Source of the DNA: a virus
Taxonomy: Duplodnaviria > Caudoviricetes
Strand: one strand, 5' to 3'
Length of the DNA: 58,170 nucleotides
IMG/VR virus record: IMGVR_UViG_3300010393_000011
Coordinates: 1 to 58,170 of that record
Within the stretch, counting starts at the first letter, position 1. Every line of letters starts with the position of its first letter. Below are positions 33,125 to 56,199 of this stretch, piece by piece. The notes under the pieces were generated by a model, which saw only the letters and a list, made by a program, of their open reading frames with translations, ran no database searches and was not told the DNA's origin. Both the position numbers and the translations under genes were made by a program.

Positions 33125-33532
33125 TCAGATTTCCTCTACCCTTATCAACGCCCCCGGTTCCTGCCCAGGAAGACAATAGGTCTTGAACGATCCTCCATCG
33201 GCAACGATAAAACGGTCGTCTTTCCACAGAAGCCCATTCAATGCATCAGCAGTGGCCTTGATCAGGTTATCCAGATCGCCGTCGGTCGGTGTGCATGGAA
33301 ACCGCCACTTCGGTTTTCTTGGCCTCGGGAAATAAAACATGAAGGCCACGCGTAGAAATATTCCTGCCGGTAGCGGTGCCTTTTTCCAGGTATTTTGTGC
33401 GTACCGCCGGCAATATTCTTTCCAGGCCGCGGCCCCGGGGTGATAATTCGAAGCCCATGTTGACTTGAATTTGCGGGGCCTCTGCTGCGGTCGGGGCCAG
33501 CCTTCTATTTTGAAAGTCAAGAGTTCCGTCAA
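33125..33532 (-). CDS. rusA: RusA-family Holliday junction resolvase
   Basis: P.PQQRPR, DLDNLIKA..DALNG..WKDD. Confidence 0.9.
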   Translation of the reverse strand: MTELLTFKIEGWPRPQQRPRKFKSTWASNYHPGAAAWKEYCRRYAQNTWKKAPLPAGIFLRVAFMFYFPRPRKPKWRFPCTPTDGDLDNLIKATADALNGLLWKDDRFIVADGGSFKTYCLPGQEPGALIRVEEI

Positions 33533-33732
33533 ATCGGCTGACCCGCATCTTCATCGTAACTGAACGTGCACCGGGCTTTCTCAAATTCTTTCCAGACAAA
33601 GTTTCTTAAATGCTTCATGGCGTCCTCCGGCTCCTCATCTTCGCCGACGGCCGCCCGAGCTCCAATTCTTCGATGTTGGTAGTCTCCTAAATTTTTCAGT
33701 TCCGAATATTCGATCTCAATTACCTTCACCAT
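33529..33732 (-). CDS. Hypothetical protein
   Basis: RBS AAAGGA, NLGDYQ motif, coupled to rusA. Confidence 0.65.
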   Translation of the reverse strand: MVKVIEIEYSELKNLGDYQHRRIGARAAVGEDEEPEDAMKHLRNFVWKEFEKARCTFSYDEDAGQPI

Positions 33733-33932
33733 CTCATCCTTTCATCGGGCAGCCGGCGTTTATACCGACCGCCCTTGGACGTTTTTTGGTTGTTTTTGCA
33801 CTCACATCCGACGTGCTAATAAAACAAATATGGATTCAGAAAATATGCCTTTTTCAGACCATGGCATCACCTCCTTCAGACTTTGCATTATGATCTGGCC
33901 AGATCTCTCCCTCTCTGGCTGATTCAGGGTTC

Positions 33933-33966
33933 GTTTCAATCCACGCCCTCGCGAGGGGGGGGCAAC
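33933..33966 (-). CRISPR. Solitary type I-C-like CRISPR repeat (SRU1)
   Basis: GTTGCCCCCCCCTCGCGAGGGCGTGGATTGAAAC; no neighbouring repeat and no cas genes. Confidence 0.8.
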
Positions 33967-34078
33967 AAGACAACCGCAAATACCTTTTCTCGAGCCAGAA
34001 AGCGGCCGCCATTGGCCGATCGATCTTTAGGGCGGTGTTAGGGGACATACATTGTCTTCCCAAGCCCTTCAGATCGTC

Positions 34079-35455
34079 TTAAAACATGTTTTCAACTTCA
34101 ACATCTCCTCGCGAATATTCCTGATATTTTTCTTCCGGCTTATAGTCCAGGAAACGTGTATATTCCTTCTGAAATGTCATCTTGATCCTCCCCGTGGATC
34201 CTCCCCGCGCCTTGGCGATATTGATAACAGCCAAATTGTGTGTAGCTACTGCATCATCACCAAAATGATAATATGGAATATTATGAAATTCAGGCCGGTA
34301 AATAAATATGACCCTGTCAGCGTCTTGCTCTATCGCACCCGAGTCTCTCAGATTATTTAATTGCGGTTCTGCCGAGCCGATCCTACTCAGCTGACTCAAG
34401 ACTATGACCGGAACATTAACTGCTTTCGCTAACTGCTTCAGCGCCCTTGTGGTCCCGGCAACTCGCAAGTTCTGATTCTCGGCCCAGGCGTGAGTAATAA
34501 ATTGCAGGTAATCAACTATTAGCAGTCTCAATCCATGTTGATTTTTATATCTCAAGGCCAGTGCATATAGGTTCGAGATTGTCAATTTATCGGGATCATG
34601 TATAGCCAAAGGCATATTGGCAAATTCAGCGCCGGCTTTAATAATACTATCCTCGTCAGCCTTGGACAGGGAACCCCCGTAAATATCCTCAGAATTTATC
34701 AGGGCTTTCGAACACAAGATCCGGATTGCAAGTTCGGTCTGCGTCATCTCGAGCGATTCAAATAAAACCTGATGTCCTTGTTGGGCCACGTTATCGGCAA
34801 TATTCAGGGCCAGCGTAGATTTGCCCTGGGAAGTTCCGGCTGCCAGGATAATGAGCTGTCCGGGCTGTAAATATCCGAGCTTTCTATCCAGGTCAATATA
34901 GCCAGTCTTAACACCGACAACGTTTTCGTCTTTGTTCTTGTAGCTTTGGATCGCGTTCTCGGTCGGCTCCAATAACTCCGAGAACATCTTTGGATCCCGG
35001 GAACCATTATTGCCTACCAGGCCCAGTACATCAGTCGCAAATCTATTGGCCACATCAACCGCAGGATCGCCGGAAATACAGGCATCCTGCAGTTTCTTGC
35101 CAGCCATATAGAGTTCCCGAAGTTGATGGAAATTTGCCACCGTCTCAGCGTGATGCCTGATATTGGCAGCCGAGGCCACATGATCTGTGAGGGCGGATAA
35201 ATAGGCTCTCCCTCCGGCTTTTTCAAGATCTCCCCTTTTGCTTAATTGATCGATGAGCGCGGTCAGGTCTATTCGGGTGTCATCCATCATCAGGTCAATA
35301 GCTGCTTCGTATATCAGGCGGTGTTTCCGGTCATAAAATTCGCTGCCTTCCAGAAGATCGCAGACACCGTACACGGCATCTTTGAAATAAATCAAAGAAG
35401 ACAAAATCGCCTTCTCGGTATCAAGACTGAATAGCTGTTTGTACTGCCTGGCCAT
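34079..35455 (-). CDS. dnaB: Replicative DNA helicase
   Basis: AAGTSQGKS, SLEM, IVDYLQ, LSQLSR, LRDSGAIEQDAD. Confidence 0.95.
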   Translation of the reverse strand: MARQYKQLFSLDTEKAILSSLIYFKDAVYGVCDLLEGSEFYDRKHRLIYEAAIDLMMDDTRIDLTALIDQLSKRGDLEKAGGRAYLSALTDHVASAANIRHHAETVANFHQLRELYMAGKKLQDACISGDPAVDVANRFATDVLGLVGNNGSRDPKMFSELLEPTENAIQSYKNKDENVVGVKTGYIDLDRKLGYLQPGQLIILAAGTSQGKSTLALNIADNVAQQGHQVLFESLEMTQTELAIRILCSKALINSEDIYGGSLSKADEDSIIKAGAEFANMPLAIHDPDKLTISNLYALALRYKNQHGLRLLIVDYLQFITHAWAENQNLRVAGTTRALKQLAKAVNVPVIVLSQLSRIGSAEPQLNNLRDSGAIEQDADRVIFIYRPEFHNIPYYHFGDDAVATHNLAVINIAKARGGSTGRIKMTFQKEYTRFLDYKPEEKYQEYSRGDVEVENMF

Positions 35456-35461
35456 GAATTT

Positions 35462-35950
35462 TTAATCCCCGCATGGTATCCACTGACCAATATTTTCATA
35501 CCAGACCCAATTGCCATGCTCCGGTTTTGGTGGTCTGTCAGTGAAGCATTTTTCCCCAACTCCGTTCCTATCTACTCTTTCTACTCTACTCTGGTGTGAA
35601 TTTTGTACATCGGGGTTGGGAAATTTGCTCGTCCTTGAGGATTTTCCCCCGCCTTTAAGTCCTTGCCATTTCTGATAATTCTTGATTGTAATGACAAAAT
35701 TGTCGCCCTTCTGTTTGAGCAAAATTGCATTCTTGTTTCTGGCAATCGATAGCATTTTTGTAAGCGATCGACGGTCTGAGCCGACAACCTGAGACAAAAA
35801 TGTCATGCTCTTGACAAAAATGTCACCCGTGTCACCAGACAATTTTGCATAGACAATTAGCTGTAACCAGATTCCTCGTTGGGTACAATTAAGCGATTGA
35901 AACCAGTCATCATTGAAAATGTCAGTCCAGATTTTTGCAAAGATCGCCAT
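35462..35950 (-). CDS. Putative replication initiator/helicase loader
   Basis: N-terminal wHTH-like region ending ITIKNYQKWQ; directly upstream of dnaB. Confidence 0.6.
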   Translation of the reverse strand: MAIFAKIWTDIFNDDWFQSLNCTQRGIWLQLIVYAKLSGDTGDIFVKSMTFLSQVVGSDRRSLTKMLSIARNKNAILLKQKGDNFVITIKNYQKWQGLKGGGKSSRTSKFPNPDVQNSHQSRVERVDRNGVGEKCFTDRPPKPEHGNWVWYENIGQWIPCGD

Positions 35951-36119
35951 GCTGTTCCTCCTCTATAATTGATCTAATTTTCTCTATCATTTCTTCCTGT
36001 CCTGCCCTCACTCCCTGGCCCCATGCCCTTGCAGGTGATTTTGGTAATCGATCCAGCTTTGCAATCCGGCTGATTCTAAGCTCCTGCTCATTGAGATATT
36101 TCTGGATTTTGTCGATCAA
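35922..36119 (-). CDS. Hypothetical protein
   Basis: Coupled ORF in the early operon. Confidence 0.5.
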   Translation of the reverse strand: MIDKIQKYLNEQELRISRIAKLDRLPKSPARAWGQGVRAGQEEMIEKIRSIIEEEQHGDLCKNLD

Positions 36120-36388
36120 AATTTACCCTCCAGGCCTCCGATGCCGGCCGCCAGGGCCTGATCAAAGGCCATCCTTTCATGATCTGCCGCGAGCCTTACC
36201 TCCACATCACTTGGACAGTCTATGCCCTCTTCTCTTAACAAGCGCTTTAACTTGTTAATAGCCAGGATCTCGGATAATCCGGTTTCGACCACAGCTCGCC
36301 TTTCCCCTACCGGCCGGGCCACAGCCACCCATTCACCAAGCCTCTCGGACCTGAAATATTTGATCTCCCTTATGAATCTCTCCGCCAT
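36116..36388 (-). CDS. Hypothetical protein
   Basis: GAGGAGG RBS. Confidence 0.6.
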   Translation of the reverse strand: MAERFIREIKYFRSERLGEWVAVARPVGERRAVVETGLSEILAINKLKRLLREEGIDCPSDVEVRLAADHERMAFDQALAAGIGGLEGKF

Positions 36389-36397
36389 TTATCCTCC

Positions 36398-36655
36398 TCA
36401 TTCGAACATGTCCTGTTGATTTGGATCTGAAAAGTACTTATTCCAGAAATCCCTTACTACAGGGAGGCACCTTTCCTTGAATTCCCATTCATGGCTTTCC
36501 TCATCGTAGCTTCGATCCTCTATCTCGATATTGGCCTTAATTTCTTTTATGAATGCCTTACAGCTCTCCCAGTCGCGCTTCTCCCAGGTCAAACATATCT
36601 TGAAGTACCCGGCGGTCGGTCTGAATAAGGGCATTAAATATTCTCCGAATTCCAT
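36398..36655 (-). CDS. Hypothetical protein
   Basis: Coupled ORF; R.YD....W motif. Confidence 0.55.
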   Translation of the reverse strand: MEFGEYLMPLFRPTAGYFKICLTWEKRDWESCKAFIKEIKANIEIEDRSYDEESHEWEFKERCLPVVRDFWNKYFSDPNQQDMFE

Positions 36656-37020
36656 TTCTTCAATTCATCCATCCTGTAAAAGGCCGGGATCCCCAGCTCC
36701 CGAGCTTTCTCCAGTTCCTCGGCCAGCCCCTTCGAGTCAATATTTGCGGGATTGTCGACAACCTTTACGGCGGCCGATACCTCCATCCATGCTATCGAGT
36801 ATTTGCGAATGGTCTCGAGGTCGATATTGCACCCAGGGTGCAGAAAGAATTGATAGTCCAGCCAGGGACAAAACGGTGCCATGCCGGCCTTGAGAATCTC
36901 GGTAGACTCCGCTATTCCGATTTGCATATTGCGAAAAATCTGCAAGATGTTGCTGCCTGAGTAGGCTCCAGCCATGTATATCCGCGTCATATTCTCAGCT
37001 GTCGAATTCACGGCTGCCAC
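36634..37020 (-). CDS. DUF4406/nucleoside deoxyribosyltransferase-like protein
   Basis: RIYMAGAYS, G..PFCP, SKG...E...A..LGIP. Confidence 0.65.
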   Translation of the reverse strand: MAAVNSTAENMTRIYMAGAYSGSNILQIFRNMQIGIAESTEILKAGMAPFCPWLDYQFFLHPGCNIDLETIRKYSIAWMEVSAAVKVVDNPANIDSKGLAEELEKARELGIPAFYRMDELKKWNSENI

Positions 37021-37222
37021 CTTGCCTCCCCGCGCTCCTTATTTGCTTTCCCATCTTCATGCCCGCCCGATTGCAGATATCCGATGCGGATAGGCTGAAC
37101 CGTTTTGCGATAATATTAAGGATGTTGATGTCCGTAAGAACATCCCCCAATGTTCGAGCTTCCCTTCTGGTTAGCTTCAACCTCAAATGTCCTGCCATTT
37201 GCCTCCCTGCATAGAATTCCAA
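36995..37222 (-). CDS. Hypothetical protein
   Basis: GGGAGG RBS before MAGHL. Confidence 0.45.
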   Translation of the reverse strand: MEFYAGRQMAGHLRLKLTRREARTLGDVLTDINILNIIAKRFSLSASDICNRAGMKMGKQIRSAGRQGGSREFDS

Positions 37223-37233
37223 TTTTCTTTTAT

Positions 37234-37356
37234 TTACCTCTTACTTAATTGCTTACACACGCCAATTATGACCAGCATAGGCAGTGCCAGCACCGCATAA
37301 ATGCCGGCGATAACGAGCCACACCGCTGCAGCGACGATGCGGACCAGGGTGGTCAT
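37234..37356 (-). CDS. Small hydrophobic peptide (~40 aa, not in ORF track)
   Basis: ATGA overlap with the upstream stop; MTTLVRIVAAAVWLV...AVLALPMLVIIGVCKQLSKR. Confidence 0.4.
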   Translation of the reverse strand: MTTLVRIVAAAVWLVIAGIYAVLALPMLVIIGVCKQLSKR

Positions 37357-38105
37357 TCCGGCAATTCCCTTCTCTTGATTGATTCTGGCCATTCGTTCAT
37401 GTTATGACTGATCTTCCCGTTGATTTCGACCTGCTTTACAAAGCATGGGGTCCAGCCCCACCGGCATTGATCGAGGATTTTATCAATCCATTCAGGATCG
37501 CATCCCCGGCGCCTTGGACCTGATTCGCAACCCACAAGTACCCAATCCAAATCTCGAACAATCGGAATTAAATCAATCTCTCCCAGCATTGGCTCTATAC
37601 TGACGAACTTCTTGGCAGCAGGAATCTGCATTAATATCGGAATGCGCTTATCGGCCTGTTCCTGATTCTCAGTGGTCACTCCCAGCCATATGTGATTAAG
37701 CCGGTCCGGAAAGCGATAGCGCATTCTGGGAAATATCTCCGCCATTCGTTCAGGCCTCTTTGTCAGGATTTGAAATACTGACTTCGAATTGTGGCCGATC
37801 TCCCTAAAGATATCTGTCAGCCATTCCTCGGGAACATTCTCATGAAAGATATCTCCCATGCTTCCAATGAAGATCATCTTGCCGACAGGAGCTTTTCGTA
37901 TCTGCTCAAGTGCCGGTTTATGGAAAGCAGTCTGGCCGGTCCAACCGCGATCATCAACCACGGTTTGATATTGTGGCCTCCCCATCGCCTTCAATCGTTT
38001 TGCCATCTTCTCTGCATAGCAGTTCTGACAACCCGGGCTCACCTTGGTGCAGCCAACAATGGGATTTATGGTTATATCAGTCCATTCGATTTTGCTCTTT
38101 GCCAC
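37353..38105 (-). CDS. Phage Gp37/Gp68 (DUF5131) radical-SAM-like protein
   Basis: SKIEWTD, GCTKVSPGCQNCYAE, QILTKRP, SIEPML, VGCESG, FVKQ. Confidence 0.92.
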   Translation of the reverse strand: MAKSKIEWTDITINPIVGCTKVSPGCQNCYAEKMAKRLKAMGRPQYQTVVDDRGWTGQTAFHKPALEQIRKAPVGKMIFIGSMGDIFHENVPEEWLTDIFREIGHNSKSVFQILTKRPERMAEIFPRMRYRFPDRLNHIWLGVTTENQEQADKRIPILMQIPAAKKFVSIEPMLGEIDLIPIVRDLDWVLVGCESGPRRRGCDPEWIDKILDQCRWGWTPCFVKQVEINGKISHNMNEWPESIKRRELPE

Positions 38106-38565
38106 CGCATGACCTTTCTGCCTCGAACTTTAATTCAGCTCCAATTTTCCTGATTTCATGGTCCGGGAATGCGAGCAGGTTGTCATAACCTATTGATAGA
38201 AATGGCCGACCAATATTCAGCTTGTAACGGCCATTTTTATCAGACACAATCAGGTCCGGTTTACTTGGATATATCTTATATTTGTCCGGGAATGCGTCGC
38301 GGCCCATTTCCTTCTTAAGATTGTACATATACCTGGCCTGACAATCTCCGCAATCAAACTGTTCTTTCCTCACCCATCCACTGGCATCTTCAAAAGCCCA
38401 ATGTGATGTGACCACGGATTGATAAGCCAGCTTTGTCAAATACGAAAAACTCTTTGGGGTCAGATAGACATCTCGATTCAAGAAACGAACGTGATACCGA
38501 ACGCTTTTGCCACTGCCTTTGCCAACATATTTGGGTTTTCCGATGACAAGTAAGACTTCACTCAC
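38077..38565 (-). CDS. Hypothetical protein
   Basis: Coupled ORF, 162 aa. Confidence 0.55.
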   Translation of the reverse strand: MSEVLLVIGKPKYVGKGSGKSVRYHVRFLNRDVYLTPKSFSYLTKLAYQSVVTSHWAFEDASGWVRKEQFDCGDCQARYMYNLKKEMGRDAFPDKYKIYPSKPDLIVSDKNGRYKLNIGRPFLSIGYDNLLAFPDHEIRKIGAELKFEAERSCGGKEQNRMD

Positions 38566-40373
38566 GCCAATCCCTCCGGAAACAATACTTCTTGTTTGGC
38601 CCGAACTTGCCGCCCGGGCAGATAGTCGATTACTTCGAATGTATTGTGCAGCCGCCCCATGTAGTTGTTGAAAGCCCCGCCGCCTTCTGTGTATCCAAGA
38701 TTTTTGGCCAGATCCTCCCTGCTTATGCTCTCCGGATAGATTTGAATCAGATACTCGAGGATCTTCTGCAGGGGGCCTTGCTTTATGATCTTAAGCCACC
38801 CCTGATGCAGCTCCTCAACTCCGGCAATCGCTTCGACCTCTCCCGCGACTCCTCTTCCTGACTCGGTCAGCTCTACTTTACCGGCTTCCGGATAATCAAT
38901 ATGGCCATTCGACCGGAGCCTGCCGAGAAGATTATTGAATGCCCCGCCCTTGGGGCTGTATTGAGCTTTTGCCGCAACCATTTCCTTGCTGGGCTTATCT
39001 ATTCCGAGCGCCTCGAATGAGGCTATAGCCTCGAGGATTCGCCGTTGAGGATTAGATAGATCAGAACCTTGTGTCATAGCTGAGTTCCTGATGGGCCTCG
39101 GAAATGCTCGTTTCTCAGTTCTCGGTTTGGCGCCACAATCCGCTGTCTCGCACTGCATGATATGGTGCATTTCATTCCCGCGACCGGATGTGAGATTTTC
39201 TATATGCTCAAAAAGCTCTGCAGGCCTTAGAGATAATCCGGTCAGCTTTTCAATATCTTTGAGGATATTGCAGCTTAATAGATGTATCCCCTGCAACTGA
39301 CCTTCAAGTTTTTTAGCTGCACTATCCAGTTCTTCCTGTAGATGCCTGATTTGGCTTTTCTGAGCCTGAATAATCGGCTCATGATTACATGGCACTGGTA
39401 CCTCTTTTTTAAGCAGCGTATTCTCGCGTTTAAGCGAAGCCAGTTCCTTCTTCAGCTCAATCATATCTTTGGCACGCTTCTCTGCCTGATGAGGGATATC
39501 CGCAAGCTTCTCAATCAGTTGCTTGATCTTGCCAGTAGCCTCTGGATGCGTTTCAACATGCTGCGTGCCGATCCTCGGGTGGGATGATTCAACATCACCG
39601 ACTTTAACCAGGACAATATCGTTGACGGGAACATATCCCTGTGAACCCTCATGTATACGGAAGGCCGGACCATATAAGTGAAATTCTCCGGGCTGTAGCT
39701 TCCGGAGCGCCAGGCTCTCTTCCCTTGAAACAAATCCCAGCTCATCAACCGCCCTTTTGCGATCGATATCCTGAATTGTTCGGCCGATCATCTTATTGCC
39801 AAGTTCCGCAGCTGCGTCTTTGTTGAGCTTGGCCAGTCTCTGTGTGGCCATTATTGTACAAATTCCCCGCTTTCGCCCTCGAGTTGCCAGATCTATCACC
39901 GCGGAAGCTGATTCGGCTTTACCCTTTTCAGGACAGATTAAATGTGCCTCATCCAACACAACCAAAACCGGATGCCGGTATCTCCGAGGAGCGCTTATTA
40001 GGGCCTCAGAAAATGCTTTTACATACGCGATTCGCTCATGCTTCTTGAGTTCGTACAGATCAAATATGCAGGATGCATTGAACTCGAGGAGCTTCAATGC
40101 CAGAAGTTTAACTGATTTTAGTTCGGCGGGAATATCTCCACCCTTGCCCGCAATGATATAATCGAATTTCTCCCTGAGTGTATGAAACTCACCTTCCAGA
40201 TCGATTACCAGCTGCTGGATCCTGCCATATGATTGTTCCAGGATCCTCCGAACGAGCCAGGACTTCCCTGCCCCACTCATCGCCTGAATCATAAGCCGGG
40301 TTTCGGTTAATGTTGCCAGATCCAGGGTAACGGTTTTATTATCATGCAATCCGAGATTTATCATCTTTGCCAA
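38562..40373 (-). CDS. HerA/FtsK-like (DUF87) ATPase with coiled coil and C-terminal wHTH-like repeats
   Basis: AMSGAGKS, IDLEGEF, VVLDEAH, RGRKRG, ATQR; two GGAFNN..GRL repeats. Confidence 0.85.
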   Translation of the reverse strand: MAKMINLGLHDNKTVTLDLATLTETRLMIQAMSGAGKSWLVRRILEQSYGRIQQLVIDLEGEFHTLREKFDYIIAGKGGDIPAELKSVKLLALKLLEFNASCIFDLYELKKHERIAYVKAFSEALISAPRRYRHPVLVVLDEAHLICPEKGKAESASAVIDLATRGRKRGICTIMATQRLAKLNKDAAAELGNKMIGRTIQDIDRKRAVDELGFVSREESLALRKLQPGEFHLYGPAFRIHEGSQGYVPVNDIVLVKVGDVESSHPRIGTQHVETHPEATGKIKQLIEKLADIPHQAEKRAKDMIELKKELASLKRENTLLKKEVPVPCNHEPIIQAQKSQIRHLQEELDSAAKKLEGQLQGIHLLSCNILKDIEKLTGLSLRPAELFEHIENLTSGRGNEMHHIMQCETADCGAKPRTEKRAFPRPIRNSAMTQGSDLSNPQRRILEAIASFEALGIDKPSKEMVAAKAQYSPKGGAFNNLLGRLRSNGHIDYPEAGKVELTESGRGVAGEVEAIAGVEELHQGWLKIIKQGPLQKILEYLIQIYPESISREDLAKNLGYTEGGGAFNNYMGRLHNTFEVIDYLPGRQVRAKQEVLFPEGLA

Positions 40374-40395
40374 TTGTTAGATTGTTAAATTTAAC

Positions 40396-40456
40396 CAGCT
40401 CCCCGGGATGGGGTGACGATATGTGAAAGGGGGCCATACCGCGAACCGGGGAGCTG
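40396..40456. repeat. 11-bp intergenic inverted repeat with 39-nt loop
   Basis: CAGCTCCCCGG / CCGGGGAGCTG. Confidence 0.7.
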
Positions 40457-40467
40457 CAGAATTCTAT

Positions 40468-41085
40468 TTAACTCGGTAATCCCATACTGGCCTGGGACTG
40501 GCCCTCCGAGTGCTTCAAAATAATCTGATCAATTTTGTCAAGCCTGGCTTTGAGCTGCTTCTCGGTAAGCCGCTTCTTTTTATCCTCGGCTTCAATTTTG
40601 TGCATGGCTTTCTGGGCTTCTGATATTTTGTTCACTTCCTCCGAGAAGGCCAGCTCCTCCAGTCTCCGGCGCTGGTCCGATTTGTCACTGGGTGTCAAAG
40701 GCGGATATAAAAGCTTATCGATTTCATCCACCCTGGCGCTGAATGCCGCGGCAGTGAGCTTCTCCTTGGAATCATCTTCCTTGAGCTTTTTGATCAACTC
40801 CTGGACCTTCTTGTTTTTCCTGGCGGCTTTGTCCTGTTCGAAATCAATCAGCCTGACTTCGGCGGCAGTACGTTTAAACAGATCCCTCTGCTCTTTATCC
40901 AGAGGTTTGATTTCCACCGAGCAGTTGACTTCCTCGGCCAGATCGATAAGCCCGTTGGCGTCCAGATGGCGGTTCTCGCTCCGCAAGAACTCGAATTCGA
41001 AGCACCCGACCATTCTCTCTTTGTCGCCGATCTTCTTGAGTTTGAATTTCGGCGGGCTGATACTGCCTTTCAATTTGAATGACAT
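40468..41085 (-). CDS. Hypothetical charged helical protein
   Basis: GGAGG RBS; internal repeat LT....ARxD.ID. Confidence 0.65.
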   Translation of the reverse strand: MSFKLKGSISPPKFKLKKIGDKERMVGCFEFEFLRSENRHLDANGLIDLAEEVNCSVEIKPLDKEQRDLFKRTAAEVRLIDFEQDKAARKNKKVQELIKKLKEDDSKEKLTAAAFSARVDEIDKLLYPPLTPSDKSDQRRRLEELAFSEEVNKISEAQKAMHKIEAEDKKKRLTEKQLKARLDKIDQIILKHSEGQSQASMGLPS

Positions 41086-41179
41086 TTGTCCTCCATGATT
41101 TTGGTTTATTTATAATAAAAAAATTCCTTTTAATATCTTCGCTGCCAGAAGCAGAACCAGCAAGATTCCCGCCACCAGG

Positions 41180-41437
41180 CTACGGCTCATTCGGAACCGG
41201 TTCCTTCTTATTGTTCTCAATCCGGGTCCTCCGCTTTTCGCGCTCATTGAAAAAGTTGACCATTGCTATCGTGTTATCAATAGAGTTGAGATCGGTCACC
41301 CGCTCATTATGCACCCGGTTGACCTGGGGCGGTATCAGGTTCTGGGTGAGAATTTCATCTTCATAATAGTGACGGCGCTTGATCTTGAGTTCCGCCAGGT
41401 ACACCATCACTTCCTCTCCGGAAATATTAACTGTCAT
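41180..41437 (-). CDS. Hypothetical protein
   Basis: Coupled ORF. Confidence 0.5.
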   Translation of the reverse strand: MTVNISGEEVMVYLAELKIKRRHYYEDEILTQNLIPPQVNRVHNERVTDLNSIDNTIAMVNFFNEREKRRTRIENNKKEPVPNEP

Positions 41438-41697
41438 ACTTGCACTCCTACGCCATCAAGTATTAAATGTGAGACCGGCAGCCAGAAGACATATCTGTCT
41501 TTGCGACAGAGCGCTTTCCCGGTGGTTTCATCCAGTCCCACAATTTCGGCTTCGCAATCTATCAATGGGCGTTTGACTGAATCGCATGCGCTGCTGAGCA
41601 GCTCGAATTCGTCCATTGAATCAATCAGAACACGATCGCCCACTATAGGAAGTGCTGCATATTCTTCCTGCTTTTCCGATACATATTTCCATTTCAT
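41434..41697 (-). CDS. Hypothetical protein
   Basis: Coupled ORF. Confidence 0.5.
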   Translation of the reverse strand: MKWKYVSEKQEEYAALPIVGDRVLIDSMDEFELLSSACDSVKRPLIDCEAEIVGLDETTGKALCRKDRYVFWLPVSHLILDGVGVQV

Positions 41698-41851
41698 TCA
41701 TATCCACCTTTCCGGCCTTCTTTGTTGTGGCCTTTTTTGCAATCATAGGCGAGAAGCAGAGATCGCATGTTGGCATGCCTTCATGGGCATGGGTTAGAAT
41801 CTTCTCATGTCCGCAGTTTATGCATTTAACGGTTAATCCAAATTTCACCAT
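41621..41851 (-). CDS. Small zinc-ribbon protein
   Basis: CINC and CDLC pairs. Confidence 0.5.
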   Translation of the reverse strand: MVKFGLTVKCINCGHEKILTHAHEGMPTCDLCFSPMIAKKATTKKAGKVDMNEMEICIGKAGRICSTSYSGRSCSD

Positions 41852-41866
41852 ATCGATAAACCTCTC

Positions 41867-42085
41867 TCAATCTATAATTTCACCGCTGCTCTTTCGCGCC
41901 GCAGCTTTGGCTTCCTCTATACTCTTGGCGATACCTGAATGCAGCCTGCCCTTATGGTCGCGATAATCCCACTGCACCCTTAGCTCATAGTTGAAAAGTG
42001 CGGAGCGGAATTCCTCATAGGCGAACTGGCCCCGCTCATGCGTGGTTGTGCAGCCGTTTTTATTCAACTTGCTTTGACTCATCAA
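41867..42085 (-). CDS. Hypothetical protein
   Basis: GGAGG RBS; QWDYRD..G.L.SG.A motif. Confidence 0.6.
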   Translation of the reverse strand: MMSQSKLNKNGCTTTHERGQFAYEEFRSALFNYELRVQWDYRDHKGRLHSGIAKSIEEAKAAARKSSGEIID

Positions 42086-45000
42086 TAGACCTCCTTCAAA
42101 TTTCCGCTTGCGGTATCATAGATGATTTTCTGCTCGCACTGGTCGGCCAGTTCTTTGCGATGGGTGACCAGCAGGAGCTTATCCAGGCGGCCCAGCTGCA
42201 TGCGTTTCTGAAGCATGTTAAATAGTGCCGAGGCTCGGAAGTCCCGCAGGGCTCCATCGCATTCATCCACCATGGCGAACTTGGGCTCAAAGCCCGACTG
42301 CTGAGCGCGATAGATTGAGACGGCGGCCTGCATGGCCACAATAAAGGGCACCTTCTGACCGCCCGAGAGGAGCCTGATTGGTCGCTCCCCCTGCTCATCG
42401 ATCACAATGATATCAAGCGTCTCAATCTGGCCTTTTCCGGAGGCCTTATCCTTGACCGTGTCAAAACGAATTTGCCAGGATGACCCGAACTCGGAGAGCA
42501 GATCGTTGGCCAGGGATGATATCTGCGGCAGTGCATTTTCCAGAAGCAGGGCAGGAATACCGTTGCGACTGAAAGCAGTCTGCAGCAAAACATAATCGGA
42601 ATAGTCGGCCTTCTTGGAAGCGTGCTTCTTCTCAGTTTCCTTAATTCGCTCCTCCAGCTCGAGCAGTTCCTTTATCTTTGCTTCTGCCGCGGCTTTGGCC
42701 TTCTCAGCCTCCAGAATCCGGGTCTCCTGGGATTCAATACGAGACTTTATTATTCTGATATCATGATTGCATTCACGAATTTCCTCCGCGAGATGGATGT
42801 CGATCTGTTTCTCGAGCTCATCACGTTTTGCTCTTAGCCCGCTCATCTGCTGGGAGAATTCCGGAATGAGCTTATCATACTCTCCCTGCTGGTACGCCAG
42901 AGATTCTCGGGCTTCCTTGAGTTGATCGGCCAGCTGTTCGGCTCGGGCCAGGGCTATGTCCAGACTCGATTTGGCAGGGCCCCAATCAGTTTTCCGGGCC
43001 TTCTCTGGAAAGCCTTCATAATCCAGGCGCAGTACCTCTGTTTCCTCTTCCAGCTTACTCAAAGACTTGCGCAGTGAATCGAGTTTATCCTCGTGCTCAC
43101 CCTCCAGGCTCTGTTTCTCTTTGGCCAGGTCCTTCAGATTATCTACCAGGGGCTTTAGGCTTTTGGAAGCATCAACCGCCGAGGAAATGAGCGGGCACTT
43201 GGAGCAGAGGTCGATGACCTCGGCGATCAGTTCATCTGTGAAGGATCTCCATTCCTGGACATCACCGCTGTAGAACTCTTTTGCGTTAAATTGCTGGCAG
43301 GGCACGTTCTCGAGCCTTTCGGCCAGCTCCTCATTCTGTTTGATCTCGGCTTCAGTGCGCTGAATCTGGTCCTCAATGTTTTTCAGATTCGATGCTTGCA
43401 GGCTCTCAACCTGGCGCAGGTCGCGCCGGGCGGCAGAGATTTCAGCTTCCTTCTTTTCGATCCGTGCCTTTAATTCCTGAGCCTCCTTCGAAAGCTTCAC
43501 CATTTCCTCGATCTTATCCCGGCGCTCGATTAAGTCCTTGTCCTTCTGGATGTCAGCATAGAGTCTCCCGATTTTCATCTCCTGCTTGGCCTTCCAGGCC
43601 TGGAATTTGTTTTGAGTTCTGATCTTCCTGGTGGACAGTTCCTCCAGCTGCTGATCGAGGTCGGCAATCTGCTTTTTAACAGATTCCTGAGTTGCGGCCT
43701 TTTTCTCGCGCTCCTTCAATTTAAACTCGAGCTCCTCCAGTTCCGATGTTGCCAGGAACTTATTAGCCTTATGCTCGGCGATAGCCTTCTGCTGTTTCTC
43801 AAGCTCAGCATCAAACTCCGGTATGAACTCCAGGGCCCGCCGATCTTCCGAAAGCTTCGCTTCCGTTAAGCTGATTTCATTCTGGAGGGCCTGGGCGGAC
43901 TCCTTGGCCTTTTCAGCAATCGCCTGATACTCCGTGAAACCCAAAAAGTCGTAGAACATGTCTTTCAGCTCAGCATTGGTCTTGTTAATCAGACCGTTCG
44001 TACCCTGAACCTGGTAGACGCCTTGCTGAAATAATTCGGGCGAGCCGAAGAGCTCCAGCACGACCCGCTTATAGGAAGGTTTTTTGCCATCATTCAAGGT
44101 GGTCCAGTCTTCGCCGTCCAATCGATAAGCGTAATATTCAGCTTTGCCGCGGACCCCATCCACTACCAGAAGGAACATATAATCAATTCCGTCTATGCTG
44201 ACCACCAGCTCGCGGCAGGAATCCTCCAGCCTGAAGTGGTCGGAGAGCTTGGCGTTCCAGTTCAGGCCGTCATAGTAAAAGCTGAAGGGATAGGGATGCA
44301 GGTTGTCAAAAGTGGTTGATTTTCCGGCTCCGTTATCTCCGTCGAAGAGAATCATGTCGCTGTTGAATTTTTCAAAGTCGATCTTGATCTCATCAGTCCA
44401 GGTGATCCCTTTGGAACCGCGCAGCCTGAGTGATTTGAGACGGATGGTGCCCCGGGCGGTAAGCCCGGCGTCATCCTCCAGCACCAGCTCGCTCTGTAGC
44501 TTGTGGAGCTTGGCCGGTATGTCTTCCGCCAGATCTGTTTCGGTCGTCTCTGCCCAGGCCTTCAGGCGCTCCAGATTCGTTATCGCTTCGTTGATGACCT
44601 CGCACCTCTGGCGGCTCTGAGGTTTGATGATCTTCTCGAATTTGACCGAATTGGGGTGCAGGTCGTTCCAGCTCAGCCATTTCTTGATATGATCTTCATT
44701 GACCAGGTCCTTGGCTTCCGGGGGCATGTGCAAGCGGATCCTGGTGTCGGCCTGATTGCAGCCATGGGGATTGAAGTCTGGAAAGCCGGCCGGGCCGCCG
44801 GTCTTTTTGTCCAGAAATCTAAAAGGCTGGTCGTCGCTGTCTTCGGGGTAATAAATGAGATCAAAATCGACCATGGCCGGGAACGGTGTCGGAATCCGCT
44901 CCAGCTGCAGAATCTCATGCCGATTGACTTCGGCATAGAGCACGGATTTCTGCTCCTTCTCACCCCAGTTATGAGGGAAGGGACTGCCCGAATAAAAGAT

Positions 45001-45723
45001 GTTCTCCCCGATCTGCTGCGGCTTATGAATGTGACCGAGGCAGTTTATGACTGCCCCGGCCTCTCGGATGTCGGTGGTAGATATAACAATATCACCACCA
45101 GTCATAACCTGGCCGGTCGGTGTTTCACTGCCATAGACAGTAAAGTGGCCGAGAAGTAAAGGGATGAATTCGGGATGGCGAGTCGCGAACCGTGCCATTT
45201 CGGCTCGGAATCCCAGAAACAGTTCTCGCACCAAACCGGCCGCTTCAACATCAGCCCGATCCGGAGAAAGATCAAGACCTCTGGACTTCGCCCAGGTCAT
45301 AAGCCCGGACTTGGTCACTCCAGGAATAGGAAATACTGCAAGATTTCCCCGCTCTTTCCTTTTTATATCGATGCACATCGAAAAAAGCTCCGGCCTGTCC
45401 AAAACAAATATCTGCCTCTCGGTATGCAGGCTCTTGAAGATATTCAATGAACCCGGCCGATCATGGGAAGGTGTGCCAGGTATCATGTAAACGTCCTGGA
45501 GCATTGCCAGGCGCCGAATATATCTGATCACCATATACAAGGGGCTGTTTTCATTAACCGCAACTTCCCCGTCCCAGATATCGCCGGGAATAACTACAAT
45601 GTCCGGCTCCTTATCTTCTGCGACCTGCAGGGCAAACTCAAAGAACTTTTCGACCTTATCCAGATTATCGCGGCGGGCATGCAGATCGGCAAAGTGGATC
45701 AGCTTCAATTTATTTTCTGCCAT
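42082..45723 (-). CDS. Single-chain SbcD(Mre11)-SbcC(Rad50) nuclease-ATPase fusion
   Basis: ADLH, GDIWD, GTPSHD, GHF, LGHIH; then GDNGAGKST, coiled coil, LSGGQ, VDECDGAL, LVTH. Confidence 0.9.
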   Translation of the reverse strand: MAENKLKLIHFADLHARRDNLDKVEKFFEFALQVAEDKEPDIVVIPGDIWDGEVAVNENSPLYMVIRYIRRLAMLQDVYMIPGTPSHDRPGSLNIFKSLHTERQIFVLDRPELFSMCIDIKRKERGNLAVFPIPGVTKSGLMTWAKSRGLDLSPDRADVEAAGLVRELFLGFRAEMARFATRHPEFIPLLLGHFTVYGSETPTGQVMTGGDIVISTTDIREAGAVINCLGHIHKPQQIGENIFYSGSPFPHNWGEKEQKSVLYAEVNRHEILQLERIPTPFPAMVDFDLIYYPEDSDDQPFRFLDKKTGGPAGFPDFNPHGCNQADTRIRLHMPPEAKDLVNEDHIKKWLSWNDLHPNSVKFEKIIKPQSRQRCEVINEAITNLERLKAWAETTETDLAEDIPAKLHKLQSELVLEDDAGLTARGTIRLKSLRLRGSKGITWTDEIKIDFEKFNSDMILFDGDNGAGKSTTFDNLHPYPFSFYYDGLNWNAKLSDHFRLEDSCRELVVSIDGIDYMFLLVVDGVRGKAEYYAYRLDGEDWTTLNDGKKPSYKRVVLELFGSPELFQQGVYQVQGTNGLINKTNAELKDMFYDFLGFTEYQAIAEKAKESAQALQNEISLTEAKLSEDRRALEFIPEFDAELEKQQKAIAEHKANKFLATSELEELEFKLKEREKKAATQESVKKQIADLDQQLEELSTRKIRTQNKFQAWKAKQEMKIGRLYADIQKDKDLIERRDKIEEMVKLSKEAQELKARIEKKEAEISAARRDLRQVESLQASNLKNIEDQIQRTEAEIKQNEELAERLENVPCQQFNAKEFYSGDVQEWRSFTDELIAEVIDLCSKCPLISSAVDASKSLKPLVDNLKDLAKEKQSLEGEHEDKLDSLRKSLSKLEEETEVLRLDYEGFPEKARKTDWGPAKSSLDIALARAEQLADQLKEARESLAYQQGEYDKLIPEFSQQMSGLRAKRDELEKQIDIHLAEEIRECNHDIRIIKSRIESQETRILEAEKAKAAAEAKIKELLELEERIKETEKKHASKKADYSDYVLLQTAFSRNGIPALLLENALPQISSLANDLLSEFGSSWQIRFDTVKDKASGKGQIETLDIIVIDEQGERPIRLLSGGQKVPFIVAMQAAVSIYRAQQSGFEPKFAMVDECDGALRDFRASALFNMLQKRMQLGRLDKLLLVTHRKELADQCEQKIIYDTASGNLKEVY

Positions 45724-46654
45724 GCTCGGCCTCCTGGTTGAGAAGGTACTGGTAGAAGCCCCGCAGGTTCGGTTCGGTCATATCGTCCAGGGGCTGAGGA
45801 GGTTTCTTGCCGAGCTGTTGGCAGAGCCTTTTGATTTCGGCCTTGACCTCGAGAAGATCGGCTCTCTGTGATTTGGGTTTGGGAGAGGCCTTTTGGGGCT
45901 TTGTCTCGGACCCGGCAGGCTCCTCCTCTGACCTTCTCAAGACCGTGCTCTCAGTTATTTCCGGCTCCTCCGTGCGCCCTTTGCCATACAGGCGGTCGGC
46001 CGCATGCTGGCCCCGCTCCATCAACAGTTTGGCGTGCAGGGGGTTGTTCATATCCCATTCCGGCATCAGCCTTCCGGCCACAAAAGGCCGGCCCAGCTCC
46101 TTCGGCAAAAAGGAGCTGGGAATGCCGAACTCTTTCTTGACCGCCCGGGCCATCGCGCCGGAGATACAGCGCTCCACTGCAAATTCAATCCGTTTGGCAA
46201 TATCCGCCTTGGAAAGGCCTGTGGCCTCCAGGCTTTTGCGGTCGATGGATTTACTGTTGGTGACGATCTTCAGGTCGCCGGTCATGTCTATGTACTGCCC
46301 CCAGACAGTGGCCCTGACCGCCAGAAGCTCATAGCTCTCGGGCTGGCGCTCTTTGGTGATGTGCGTCTTAAACCAGTTGATTCCGGCGGCGTTACCGATC
46401 TTGATTAAAGCCTGGGAGCTGGGAGAGATTCGGCCGCTCTGTTTAGGGGTAGGATAAAAGTCGCCCTTTTTCTCATCCTCCACGTTGAGCTTGATCGTAC
46501 TTAAGACGATCTTGTGCCCTGGTGGAAGGTATTGAATCACCCGGGCGGGCATGGCCAGATTGAACTGGTCCTCCGGGAATTCTTTCAGTAATTGAACCGG
46601 CCCCTCGTCCAGAGTTCGCTCACTGATTACGGTTGGATAATTTTTGGTTGACAT
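45710..46654 (-). CDS. Hypothetical protein, possible recombination/strand-annealing function
   Basis: Adjacent to SbcCD; ERC.SGA.ARA pattern, disordered C-terminus. Confidence 0.45.
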   Translation of the reverse strand: MSTKNYPTVISERTLDEGPVQLLKEFPEDQFNLAMPARVIQYLPPGHKIVLSTIKLNVEDEKKGDFYPTPKQSGRISPSSQALIKIGNAAGINWFKTHITKERQPESYELLAVRATVWGQYIDMTGDLKIVTNSKSIDRKSLEATGLSKADIAKRIEFAVERCISGAMARAVKKEFGIPSSFLPKELGRPFVAGRLMPEWDMNNPLHAKLLMERGQHAADRLYGKGRTEEPEITESTVLRRSEEEPAGSETKPQKASPKPKSQRADLLEVKAEIKRLCQQLGKKPPQPLDDMTEPNLRGFYQYLLNQEAEHGRK

Positions 46655-46699
46655 CCGAGTTCTCCTTAATTAATCTGAAAGTGCATCGTAGATCACATT

Positions 46700-46988
46700 T
46701 CACTCTTGATGTTTTGTCTCGTGGTCTCTCAGCGATGTTAGATTGCTGCCCGACCGCCCGGTCGGGCAGCTTGTGATCTCATGTTTCTTTTTGTCCCGGT
46801 AGGGTGGAAGATCCAAGACCGGGATTTTTCTGTCTGCAATCATTCCGGCCAGATGCCTGTTTAATTCGTCATTATTCCTGATGAGCTCTTTAATAATTGG
46901 CCGAAGCTGATCGCTTTTATCTCTGCGTCCCTGCTGATACGCTTCTTCCCTAATCTCTTCAAGATGCTTTTTGCTGCAAAGTCTCATA
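46700..46988 (-). CDS. Hypothetical protein
   Basis: GAAAGGA RBS before MRLCSK; start approximate. Confidence 0.55.
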
Positions 46989-47007
46989 TCGATCCTTTCT
47001 AAATCAC

Positions 47008-47189
47008 GAGGCCCCGCCGGCACACCTGCTGATCAGACAGACGCATTGCAATTCGGGGCCTCTTTTCCATCACATAGGGTTTATTCTGTTTCAATCCACA
47101 ATCCGGCGAGGGAGGCAACCAAAAAAAGAGGCCCCGACAAATTAGATTCCGGAGTATCAGGTAGTATGTTGACACCCATCCGGGGCCTC
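47008..47189. repeat. Four alternating GAGGCCCCG/CGGGGCCTC boxes
   Basis: 47008-47016, 47054-47062, 47128-47136, 47181-47189. Confidence 0.85.
47088..47119 (-). CRISPR. Solitary type I-C-like CRISPR repeat (SRU2), degenerate stem
   Basis: GTTGCCTCCCTCGCCGGATTGTGGATTGAAAC, 32 nt. Confidence 0.75.
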
Positions 47190-47222
47190 TTCCTACAACA
47201 AAGGAGGGGGTGAACTGCTGAT

Positions 47223-47712
47223 TCATATTCCGGCCTCCCCATTTATCCCCGCGTCAAACAGATTGCCGTTTATAGTCCGGGGAGGTTTTTGAAATTTATC
47301 TCGATTGGCTTCATAAAGCCGATCCTGATCTCTTATGCGTTTAAGGCAGGCCGCCGTTACCCACTCGCTCTTGGCCCTCGATTCCAGGTGATCGATCGTG
47401 ATCTGGATGTCCTCCCTGCTGACGTAATAACCCTTGGATCCGGAGCAGACATAAAAGCCCATCCTTCTCAGGGCGTTCACGCAGGCTCTGATCATGGCCC
47501 CGTTCAGCCCGAGGATCTCCGACATCCTGGTCTGCTTGATTGCATTGTCTCTGCTGCGGTGCTTCTTCAGCAGGGCCCAGACCCGGCGGGCATTCAACTG
47601 AGTACCGCCGGATTCTTCAATGATGTCCCGGTAAATTTCGAAAGGGTCATCCCGGGGCATAAGCTCCGAGGCCTTGAAGACTTCCGGTATTTCGACCTGA
47701 ATCTTCAATATG
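47223..47712 (-). CDS. Winged-HTH protein
   Basis: IR..V..LR..G..VCS...GY; start probably near the xis stop rather than 47846. Confidence 0.6.
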
Positions 47713-47914
47713 CATCTCTCCCGTGAATCGGATCCTCCGGGACATAGCATCCATCTATGAATGACTGAATGTCCCGGGCGCGCCACCTGACCGGTCCACC
47801 CTTGCCGGAGAGCCGAATCACCGGCAGCTTTCCGATCGAGGTCCACTTACGAAGGGTATTCAATTTGATGCCCAGAATCTCGCAGACTTCTTTTGATGTT
47901 AAGAGCTTATCCAT
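47705..47914 (-). CDS. Excisionase-like HTH_17 protein
   Basis: LLT.KEV.E.LGI...TL.KW...GKLP..R, VRW...DI..FI. Confidence 0.85.
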   Translation of the reverse strand: MDKLLTSKEVCEILGIKLNTLRKWTSIGKLPVIRLSGKGGPVRWRARDIQSFIDGCYVPEDPIHGRDAY

Positions 47915-48142
47915 CTACCATATTCCTTGACAAATAGGAGTCTTGATATATTTTTAAGAAGGAGCCCGGAGAGGCCATTCTCCGGACTCCGCTTCCTCAA
48001 CCTTCCCCCCTCAAGAAATCACTTCTTATGTGTAAGGATTGGGTATGCTTGTTCATGTTCTTAAATCCAGGTCCGGCTTAGAAGGGCTGGGTCGCATTTC
48101 CCGCCGATAAATTATCCGGAGTTCTTTTATGCGTAAATTCCA

Positions 48143-49173: not shown

Positions 49174-49830
49174 ATGAAAAGAATGTCATTTTTTGCAGTT
49201 CTAACCTTGTTTTTAGCTGTGCCCGTTTGTGGCCAGGATTACGCCGCGGAAGACCATCACTATGGTTTCCATTTTGGAGCGGCTTACTCGAATTTCCAGG
49301 ATGACAAGCTGGAAATTGAAATAATAGAACCTGACGATATAATCACTTTCTATCTGGGAGGCAGTTTATTCTTTTACGAAATATTTGCATTGGAGGTATC
49401 AGTCAGCTATGCCAAAGAATCTGTCTACGAGGTCGCTTCCGGAGCAGCTGTCAATTACGGCGACTTTACTCAATTTCCGATTTCAGTATCGGCAAAATTG
49501 TATAATAACCCGGAGGGAGGGAAAGTCCGGGCTTTCCTGGCGGCTGGCATGAGCTATTATTTTCTGGACTTCGACCAAAGTCAGTATCTCACAAATATAT
49601 ATTCTGATGTCTACGGGGTGACCGGAAAAGTAAAAGTTGAAAACGAACTGTCACCTTTTTTTGCAATAGGCATCGATATATTCATCTCCCACAATGCGGC
49701 AATAAGCTCCCAGATCAAATACACTTGGTTAAATCCGAGAGTTACGCTCCCGATCCCAATGATCTGGGATGAGCATCTAAAGGTTAACCCCTTCACTATC
49801 TCCCTGGGATTTTCTCTTTATGGCGGATAA
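49174..49830 (+). CDS. OmpW-like outer-membrane beta-barrel (moron)
   Basis: Signal peptide, amphipathic strands, C-terminal VNP....LG.S.Y. Confidence 0.75.
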   Translation: MKRMSFFAVLTLFLAVPVCGQDYAAEDHHYGFHFGAAYSNFQDDKLEIEIIEPDDIITFYLGGSLFFYEIFALEVSVSYAKESVYEVASGAAVNYGDFTQFPISVSAKLYNNPEGGKVRAFLAAGMSYYFLDFDQSQYLTNIYSDVYGVTGKVKVENELSPFFAIGIDIFISHNAAISSQIKYTWLNPRVTLPIPMIWDEHLKVNPFTISLGFSLYGG

Positions 49831-49891
49831 AACAAGGTGTAATTTGCGAGAACAAATGAGCCAACACAAAACTCTTCAGAAAGGAGTGAAT

Positions 49892-50128
49892 ATGGCAGAT
49901 TTCGAAGTTCGGATCCTTAATCACGACCTGGAACCGATTCAAGGCGTCAGAGTCAGACTGGAATTCACACCACTCACAAGAGGTATGACCGGCGAAGAGT
50001 ACACTGACTCAGACGGGGTGGCAATGTTCTCCGGTTTTGATGAAGGTGAAGTCAATGTCTATGTGGATCACAGCGATTACGGCAGCTATCGATACGAAGA
50101 CGGAGGCAGCATAACAATCACAAAATGA
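49892..50128 (+). CDS. Small beta-sandwich protein (carboxypeptidase-regulatory-like)
   Basis: AAAGGAG RBS; PI.GV.V, YTDSDG.A.F. Confidence 0.6.
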   Translation: MADFEVRILNHDLEPIQGVRVRLEFTPLTRGMTGEEYTDSDGVAMFSGFDEGEVNVYVDHSDYGSYRYEDGGSITITK

Positions 50129-50284
50129 GCAATTCTCTGCTTCCCCGCAGCGGAGACCTGAGGACCGATAAAGGGAGGGAGGCTTTTGCAGGCCTCCCTG
50201 CCGAAGATAGGCAGAAATAATGGATGGAGATTACAAAAGAAGACCGCAAGAAACAGCAATTTCATTTATGTGACGGTGGTAGTT

Positions 50285-50317
50285 TTGACTTGCATTCCCG
50301 CACGAAACTGATAAATT
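50285..50317 (+). promoter_or_regulatory. Possible sigma70 promoter of the five-gene cassette
   Basis: TTGCAT-N16-TAAATT with extended TGn. Confidence 0.35.
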
Positions 50318-50403
50318 GATAACGTGGTGCTGCTGGCTTCAGAGGGAAATAAGAGCCGACTTCTTTTGGTCATCCTGATATTTTTAGAGCTTAGGCATAG
50401 ATT

Positions 50404-51507: not shown

Positions 51508-51520
51508 AAGGGGAAATCCC

Positions 51521-53209: not shown

Positions 53210-53211
53210 AT

Positions 53212-56195: not shown

Positions 56196-56199
56196 TCAG

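Follow-up and report, generated by a model that had tools for sequence, protein, structure and literature searches.

The stretch of DNA analysed here (the window) is the virus record IMGVR_UViG_3300010393_000011 of IMG/VR (Duplodnaviria; Caudoviricetes), taken over its full length of 58,170 nucleotides (nt), and it was found to contain two solitary repeat units (SRUs) related to the type I-C repeat of clustered regularly interspaced short palindromic repeat (CRISPR) arrays. The two units, SRU1 and SRU2, lie on the minus strand of a prophage and are genuine solitary units whose origin is the type I-C repeat found in the host genus. They are most likely candidates for RNA anti-CRISPRs (Racrs), a known kind of element and not a new class, and it is tentatively proposed, at somewhat less than even confidence, that at least SRU1 acts as an RNA anti-CRISPR of this type. 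The host lineage is represented by an Ignavibacteria metagenome-assembled genome (MAG), and the organism field of the sequencing runs was found to read hot springs metagenome.

Read on the minus strand, both units were found to start with GTTGCC, to contain CCCTCGC inside and to end with GTGGATTGAAAC; the coordinates and the shared blocks of both elements, as first recorded in an earlier note on this DNA, were exact on re-reading. The 32-nt repeat of the same genus was found to be GTTGCCCCCCT[C/T]GCGGGGGCGTGGATTGAAAC, present in 38 copies in genome G003 and in 25 copies in genome G004. In a Hamming scan with the 32-nt repeat of G003 over both strands of all 55 contigs of the host assembly (G000), sites with nine mismatches or fewer were found at SRU1 and SRU2 only. 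Each unit contained five mismatches to the G003 repeat in the ungapped comparison, followed by the next best sites of the assembly with 10 mismatches, which is about chance, and the next best site on the same strand inside the window contained 13. A shorter 12-mer, searched at one mismatch or fewer, was matched twice in the window against a shuffle mean of 0.25, and two or more matches were found in 3 of the 100 shuffles; this count taken alone is only suggestive, and the full-length comparison is decisive.

The gapped alignment of SRU1 with the G003 repeat was found to contain 31 matches, one mismatch and two gap columns (31 of 34 columns). SRU1 is the G003-type repeat with two extra C nucleotides in the 5′ arm of the stem and one G>A change, and its 11-nt part of the 5′ handle was unchanged. 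SRU2 was identical to the G003 repeat at 27 of 32 positions, the first six and the last 12 nucleotides being unchanged and all five changes lying within the stem region. The G003 repeat was found to be nearer to both units than the repeats of G004, G034 or G080. The GTTGCC nucleotides at the 5′ end were present in both same-genus arrays, and GTCGC was present at the start of the two inspected arrays of other families of the class as well as of the array fragment of G008. The Rfam family CRISPR-DR9 was matched by SRU1 with 18.7 bits (E 0.17), the gathering score of 45 not being reached, and only the 3′ tail of SRU2 was matched; at gathering thresholds no Rfam match was found anywhere in the window, and the tRNA search of the window returned none. 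Contigs of two further public runs, possibly not independent samples, were found to span both units with zero differences, which rules out an assembly artefact.

Neither unit was found to have a second repeat nearby (from 160 nt before the unit start to as much as 180 nt after it), where the best sites contained 17-18 mismatches over 32 positions, equal to background. In the host assembly (3.58 Mb, 94.65% complete) no match to Cas1 or Cas5d and no periodic repeats of a CRISPR array were found over its whole length, and the claim that the window contains no array and no cas genes was thus borne out and holds for the whole assembly with respect to cas1, cas5c and periodic repeats. A CRISPR mini-array was considered as a candidate and rejected, as no second flanking repeat was present and the units are 13 kb apart. 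The published definition of an SRU, i.e. a match to a known repeat with no associated (partial) repeats or cas genes (PMC10651486), describes both units.

All window genes from position 1 to 47914 were found on the minus strand. SRU1 was found 112 nt downstream of the dnaB stop codon, and SRU2 was found in a leader behind the first two genes of the leftward operon. The prophage has a terminase, an integrase and attachment (att) sites; within it, each unit is bordered by convincing genes and has the strand of the flanking replication and recombination genes, which agrees with the intergenic and sense placement noted earlier. From its gene content the region appears to be an early operon. The coordinates of the units and of the surrounding features, including an open reading frame (ORF) over each unit, are collected in the table.

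Table. Coordinates of the two solitary repeat units and of other features of the window (aa, amino acids; bp, base pairs)
Feature	Position	Strand	Evidence
SRU1, solitary type I-C repeat unit, 34 nt	33966..33933	-	repeat alignment
SRU2, solitary type I-C repeat unit, 32 nt	47119..47088	-	repeat alignment
Hairpin A, 10-bp arms AGAGGCCCCG / CGGGGCCTCT	47127..47190	-	folding, comparison with G004
Hairpin B, 9-bp arms GAGGCCCCG / CGGGGCCTC, 25 nt downstream of SRU2	47008..47062	-	comparison with G004
Weak ORF over SRU1	33854-34063		no Pfam match
Weak ORF over SRU2, 75 aa	46999-47226		no Pfam or PHROG match
Terminase	29804-31228	-	
67-aa ORF and RusA-like resolvase, downstream of SRU1	33125..33732 (RusA 33125-33532)	-	Pfam, PHROG
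DnaB-like replicative helicase	34079..35455	-	Pfam DnaB_C 1.4e-71; phrog_19
DUF5131 gene and HerA-like ATPase gene	minus-strand module	-	Pfam/PHROG
Fused SbcD-SbcC protein, 1213 aa	42082-45723	-	Pfam, PHROG
97-aa orphan ORF directly downstream of hairpin B	46700..46993	-	ORF
First two genes of the leftward operon, upstream of SRU2	47223..47914	-	Pfam, PHROG
~145-aa gene, phrog_2113	47223-47660	-	
HTH_17 (excisionase/Cro-like) gene at the operon head	47705-47914	-	
Cargo island between repressor and integrase	49174..56853	+	Pfam, comparison with G004
Tyrosine integrase, cut by the window end	57049..58170	+	Pfam

Arrays of the same repeat were found in two of the five genus genomes searched (G000 included). 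The chromosomal locus of G003 was found to contain cas3-cas5c-cas8c-cas7c-cas4-cas1-cas2 (NCBIfam) adjoining the 38 repeats, and the same set of seven cas genes was found adjoining the 25 repeats of G004. A system of the matching subtype was therefore found in none of the contigs of the own genome and as a complete type I-C operon in two of the five genomes of the genus; a type I-C system with a similar repeat, the absence of which from the host lineage had been named in the earlier note as speaking against its proposal, exists in G003 and G004, with a repeat that is near-identical to the units. The G003 locus was also found to be flanked on both sides by an element of ~200 nt (L015 1795-2017 and 12969-13147, i.e. 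G003:C11 35795-36017 and 46969-47147), for which ~20 matching places each were found in the G000 genome with 67-90% identity; possibly these flanks of the cas locus belong to a small element, mobile or repeated.

The G004 system was found to lie within a sibling prophage of ~66.5 kb (contig C4, ~7431 to 73900) bounded by the same att repeat. The amino acid identity between the G000 and G004 prophages was 85% for the integrase, 50% for the repressor and 80% for the HTH_17 protein; the replication and recombination module was mostly common to both (30-82%), and the structural genes differed. The type I-C operon and array of G004 were found between the repressor and the integrase, which is the place of the cargo island in the window, and a homologue of the window gene at 49820-50128 was found just upstream of the G004 cas3. 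This cargo (L016 1969-11700 with L030) contained the full type I-C cas operon and 25 repeats followed by a 3′-truncated terminal repeat, and the G004 element is a temperate phage carrying CRISPR-Cas as cargo. Spacers 2 and 3 of its array were found to be identical in sequence, and two further pairs of spacers gave identical BLAST matches. No SRU was found in the sibling prophage at 11 mismatches or fewer.

Racrs are solitary phage repeat mimics that compete with CRISPR RNAs (crRNAs) for Cas proteins, and one of them, RacrIC1 from a Bifidobacterium pseudocatenulatum prophage, is a validated type I-C Racr that inhibits type I-C interference and rescues the targeted phage (PMC10651486). For the units of the window the following course is proposed. 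The transcript of the leftward operon would run through both units, and in a cell with a type I-C system Cas5c would bind the repeat mimics. A Cas5c cut at SRU1 would fall 11 nt from the 3′ end, the RNA 5′ end then being at UGGAUUGAAAC, and the products, with a 3′ hairpin or a 5′ handle and no proper guide, would draw Cas5c, Cas7c and Cas8c into non-targeting complexes, resulting in fewer effector complexes loaded with phage-targeting crRNAs. The opposing type I-C systems would be chromosomal (G003-like) or carried by a competing sibling prophage (G004-like).

The surroundings of SRU2 bear on this proposal. A conserved leader of ~210 nt with two long hairpins (A and B in the table) was found to be common to both prophages. 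Hairpin A was kept in G004 with one arm change, which results in a G.U pair. In the window the last T of its 3′ arm is also the first of seven T (47127-47121) that immediately precede SRU2, and this T-run was not kept in G004. Hairpin B was kept in G004 too, a G-C pair being replaced there by A-T in a compensatory change. Between the hairpins, G000 was found to contain the T-run and SRU2 (40 nt), and G004 was found to contain 22 unrelated nt; the leader being conserved apart from this stretch, SRU2 represents a small indel in a conserved backbone. The two leader hairpins (window 47008-47190, minus strand; L030 16137-16345, minus strand) were found to contain nearly identical arms and conserved loops, and all four arms can cross-pair. 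The hairpin pair is possibly a regulatory RNA or an operator region.

The same leader was inspected as coding sequence, as SRU2 falls within a possible protein-coding gene of 75 aa, the start of which overlaps the upstream stop codon (ATGA). The frame is open, and it is open also in G004 because the indel is of 18 nt. Such a gene is nevertheless barely credible: the differences from the homologous region of G004 by codon position were 23 of 64, 19 of 63 and 18 of 64, with no third-position excess, neither Pfam nor PHROG was matched by the translation, the region contains hairpin arms that have undergone a compensatory change, and the upstream part of the G004 'ORF' was found to be unrelated.

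A number of observations weigh against a Racr function of the units. The predicted folding energy was found to be -7.5 kcal/mol for SRU1 and -2.0 kcal/mol for SRU2, against -13.5 kcal/mol for the canonical repeat. The base of the SRU1 stem was kept with about half of the canonical stability, the unit showing no sign of extended structure in its 156-nt context (z = 0.5), and the stem of SRU2 was destroyed according to the folding prediction. The repeat-like sequence expected of a Racr was thus found in both units, and the repeat-like structure was found weakened in SRU1 and absent in SRU2. From the sequence, SRU1 is the credible active unit of the pair, and SRU2 may be a decaying copy or a handle-only decoy. 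RacrIF1 of a Pectobacterium prophage (type I-F) is bound by Cas6f through an essential stem-loop and has a dispensable 5′ handle (PMC10651486); SRU2 is the opposite, with the handle kept and the stem lost. Four of the five changes of SRU2 could moreover be explained by one templated event duplicating GGATTG, and that they cluster in the stem therefore says little about selection.

The expression of the units is a further point on that side. In the 250 nt upstream of each unit the minus strand was found to contain no sigma-70-like promoter; the tRNA genes of the own genome contain clear CTTGACA-17-TATAAT promoters, so classic sigma-70 is in use. A promoter within 250 bp upstream, which was a selection criterion for the tested Racr candidates (PMC10651486), is accordingly absent for both units, and transcription across them is presumed. 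Hairpin A with its 7 T looks like a terminator placed ahead of SRU2. RacrIC1 itself is transcribed together with the gene before it and has no need of a separate promoter (PMC10651486), and the missing promoters therefore leave function possible.

The resident host as assembled is without a type I-C system, and the units were found in one phage only across the searches of phage records and of viral, genome and metagenome contigs. A direct sign of type I-C targeting of this phage family was absent among the spacers of G003 and G004. When 103 spacers (all of G003 and G004, part of G034 and G080) were compared with the complete G000 genome and with the G004 prophage, no match above 17 identical nt (18 with one mismatch, 22 with two) was found in G000, and none was found in the G004 prophage outside its own array. 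The decoy-RNA proposal of the earlier note stands in so far as real solitary type I-C units are present in a prophage and a validated precedent exists in RacrIC1, and is weakened by the lost hairpin of SRU2 and the lack of promoters of their own.

Several of these observations fit functionless relics as well, i.e. single repeats left by past recombination with a type I-C array (e.g. that of an ancestor or sibling with a CRISPR locus) and now decaying. The hairpin is lost in SRU2 and weakened in SRU1, neither unit has its own promoter, both were seen in a single phage, SRU2 interrupts an otherwise conserved leader as a small indel, and the same-family array of the sibling phage would be raw material at hand. 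Relics are the strongest alternative to the Racr proposal, and were judged rather unlikely. The last 12 and the first six nucleotides of the repeat were found to be perfect in both units, whereas the last repeat of an array decays at its 3′ end, as is seen in the degenerate 3′ end of the terminal G004 repeat, the very part that is perfect in both SRUs. Both units are sense-oriented and intergenic, and they lie 13 kb apart and away from the cargo site that holds the array of the sibling. SRU1 and SRU2 were alike in 26 of 34 columns, each being nearer to the canonical repeat than to the other unit, which suggests two separate acquisitions and argues against relics.

The perfect 5′ handle in both units could also belong to guide-like RNAs (a Cracr or a one-repeat guide), in which the handle and the downstream sequence would direct Cascade to the promoter of cas or defence genes or to a competing phage; viral crRNA-like RNAs (crlRNAs) against type I-C are described in a preprint (10.1101/2024.10.29.618823). 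For the units of the window this is very unlikely. The match of the ~35 nt downstream to cas promoters beside a TTC protospacer adjacent motif (PAM), which the earlier note had in view, was searched for in G001-G005, with the two same-genus type I-C loci, and was not found. With a TTC PAM and 15 nt of downstream sequence at three mismatches or fewer, the matches in G001-G005 were at chance level, none of them with fewer than two mismatches, and no match was found inside the cas operons themselves. The matches of the sequence downstream of SRU1 were somewhat more frequent than those of a reversed-pattern control, and one PAM-less match with three mismatches (G004:C4:60387-60404) was found in the prophage cargo ~2.5 kb upstream of cas3. 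The cas loci of G003 and G004 contained no PAM-proximal TTC seeds of 8-10 nt and no CreA/CreR-like degenerate repeat to be mimicked. The sequence downstream of SRU2 is phage backbone, being present in G004 without the unit, and is therefore not an acquired spacer.

The sense-strand position of both units between genes, and that of SRU2 in the leader behind the first two genes, would also suit processing sites at which Cas5c of the host or of a sibling phage cuts the polycistronic phage mRNA, for regulation or sensing, which was the second idea of the earlier note. Cas5c needs the repeat hairpin for cleavage. The hairpin of SRU2 is gone, and cleavage by Cas5c at SRU2 is therefore doubtful; the resident host is without Cas5c, so the phage manages without it, and no precedent was found in the accessible literature. 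Processing sites were thus regarded as highly improbable.

A role at the DNA level, in which the units would supply the short homology needed to recombine with CRISPR arrays, exchange cargo or integrate into arrays, was judged extremely unlikely. Array integration has been suggested for SRUs (PMC10651486), and the cargo site of this phage family does swap a CRISPR locus for another island. The phage, however, integrates at tRNA-Met via its tyrosine integrase, the cargo site lies 2 kb from one unit and 15 kb from the other and is not flanked by them, and 32-34 nt with at least five differences would be a poor substrate for homologous recombination. The tRNA-Met was found on contig C20 (58197-58272) just past the window end, where it forms attR, and its 3′ 31-33 nt were found repeated as attL on contig C10 (110498-110530) and in G004. 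The prophage is split by a contig break into C10 from 110498 to the end and C20 1-58224. The genomes G001, G003 and G005 contained the tRNA with no integrase, which marks their att sites as empty, and in G001 and G003 the flank downstream of the tRNA is complete as well.

The searches for related phages and like units were found to give the following results. The megablast search of window positions 33000-48000 against 50,697 phage records gave no match, and the search of viral contigs based on DnaB gave no relative, five pattern matches having failed in tblastn. The 32-nt frame pattern was matched 0 times in viral contigs, and the frame with a variable gap was matched there by 59 single sites, approximately the estimated chance number, none of which was type I-C-like apart from L094. 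The locus L094 was found to contain a 29-nt unit with a 7-bp stem from a different repeat family. In metagenome contigs the SRU2-type pattern was matched nine times, none of the matches being related. Among the relatives, 42 of 101 genomes contained a match to the 12-mer, with arrays of at least nine copies in 9 genomes. Sixteen loci were inspected in genomes with one or two matches, of which 14 were chance matches; of the other two, the first was a fragment of an array, located where the contig ends (L110), and the second was a half repeat (L014). The lone half repeat (L014 ~1502-1533, minus strand; G026:C15) was found in a genome of another family, in which the repeat tail occurs nowhere else, and its 3′ 20 nt are identical to the type I-C repeat; the half repeat is possibly a further solitary unit or what is left of an array.

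In the fused SbcD-SbcC protein an SbcD-like phosphoesterase is joined to an SbcC-like ATPase, and its identity to the corresponding protein of the G004 prophage was 61% (tblastn; 62% in the alignment). Relatives of this fusion were found in the G004 contig only among genome contigs and at four distant loci in viral contigs (21-26% identity), and its query of metagenome contigs gave 589 pattern matches, none of which was confirmed. The search for relatives of the 97-aa ORF among 5.8 billion proteins returned only the ORF itself, and hence no assignment as an anti-CRISPR (acr) gene was made. At 33745-33800, ~135 nt downstream of SRU1, the plus strand was found to contain a G+C-rich hairpin with a T-run behind it; this site is terminator-like and opposes the phage genes. 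An HTH_3 repressor-like gene was found on the plus strand before the cargo island, and the island contained OmpW-like, HATPase_c_3, radical-SAM/B12-like and DUF3800 proteins and a 562-aa protein with weak HerA/mad8 matches. Possibly the cargo island serves in defence and has been exchanged for the CRISPR locus that the sibling carries.

An extended form of the Racr proposal, which is a long shot, is that the two sibling phages compete for the same tRNA-Met site within one genus, one with type I-C cargo and the other with mimics that would disarm this cargo as well as chromosomal type I-C systems, SRU2 serving as a handle-only decoy without Cas5c cleavage. If true, this would be a phage-against-phage arms race of CRISPR against RNA anti-CRISPR, and a handle-only decoy working without Cas5c cleavage would be a mode undescribed for Racrs. 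If the units are active, they would be type I-C Racrs in Ignavibacteria, a lineage that is not among the hosts named in the accessible sections of PMC10651486. The presence of two units in one phage, one with the hairpin kept and one with the hairpin lost, could in that case show which part of the repeat is needed for inhibition. The sibling with a matching CRISPR-Cas system at the same cargo site provides a ready pair for the study of CRISPR exclusion between phages and its evasion. If the units are inactive, they would show the spread of repeat fragments through phage genomes and would warn against calling every SRU an anti-CRISPR.

Among the known systems, mini-arrays and CRISPR-Cas encoded by phages are represented by Vibrio phage ICP1 and the huge phages. 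The G004 sibling was found to carry a full type I-C locus with its array, whereas the phage of the window contained no cas genes and no repeat-spacer-repeat. Viral crlRNAs silencing type I-C, I-E, I-F and V-A loci are described in the preprint (bioRxiv 10.1101/2024.10.29.618823), where Cracrs contain a spacer-like part that matches a cas or toxin promoter, or a host CreA/CreR, at nine or more PAM-proximal positions, and often form small arrays. The units of the window share with them a phage-borne, repeat-derived RNA that would act against CRISPR-Cas, type I-C included, and differ from them in that no promoter match and no second repeat were found.

The nearest likeness is to the Racrs, which belong to a reported set of 2,103 viral SRUs (PMC10651486), and both units may already be among the SRUs of GTDB proviruses tabulated with that paper. 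With RacrIF1 they share the proposed competition of a repeat mimic with crRNAs for Cas proteins; RacrIF1 has a strong promoter of its own (PMC10651486), whereas none was found within 250 nt of the units. RacrIC1, as given there, sits 11 nt after an AcrIC5 homologue, whereas the upstream genes here are dnaB (112 nt away) and the gene of the ~145-aa protein, with no recognisable acr gene. The window further differs from it in containing two units in one phage, one of them hairpin-less, in a host MAG without cas genes. Like RacrIC1, the two candidate units are solitary type I-C mimics of a prophage, located on the sense strand downstream of a protein gene.

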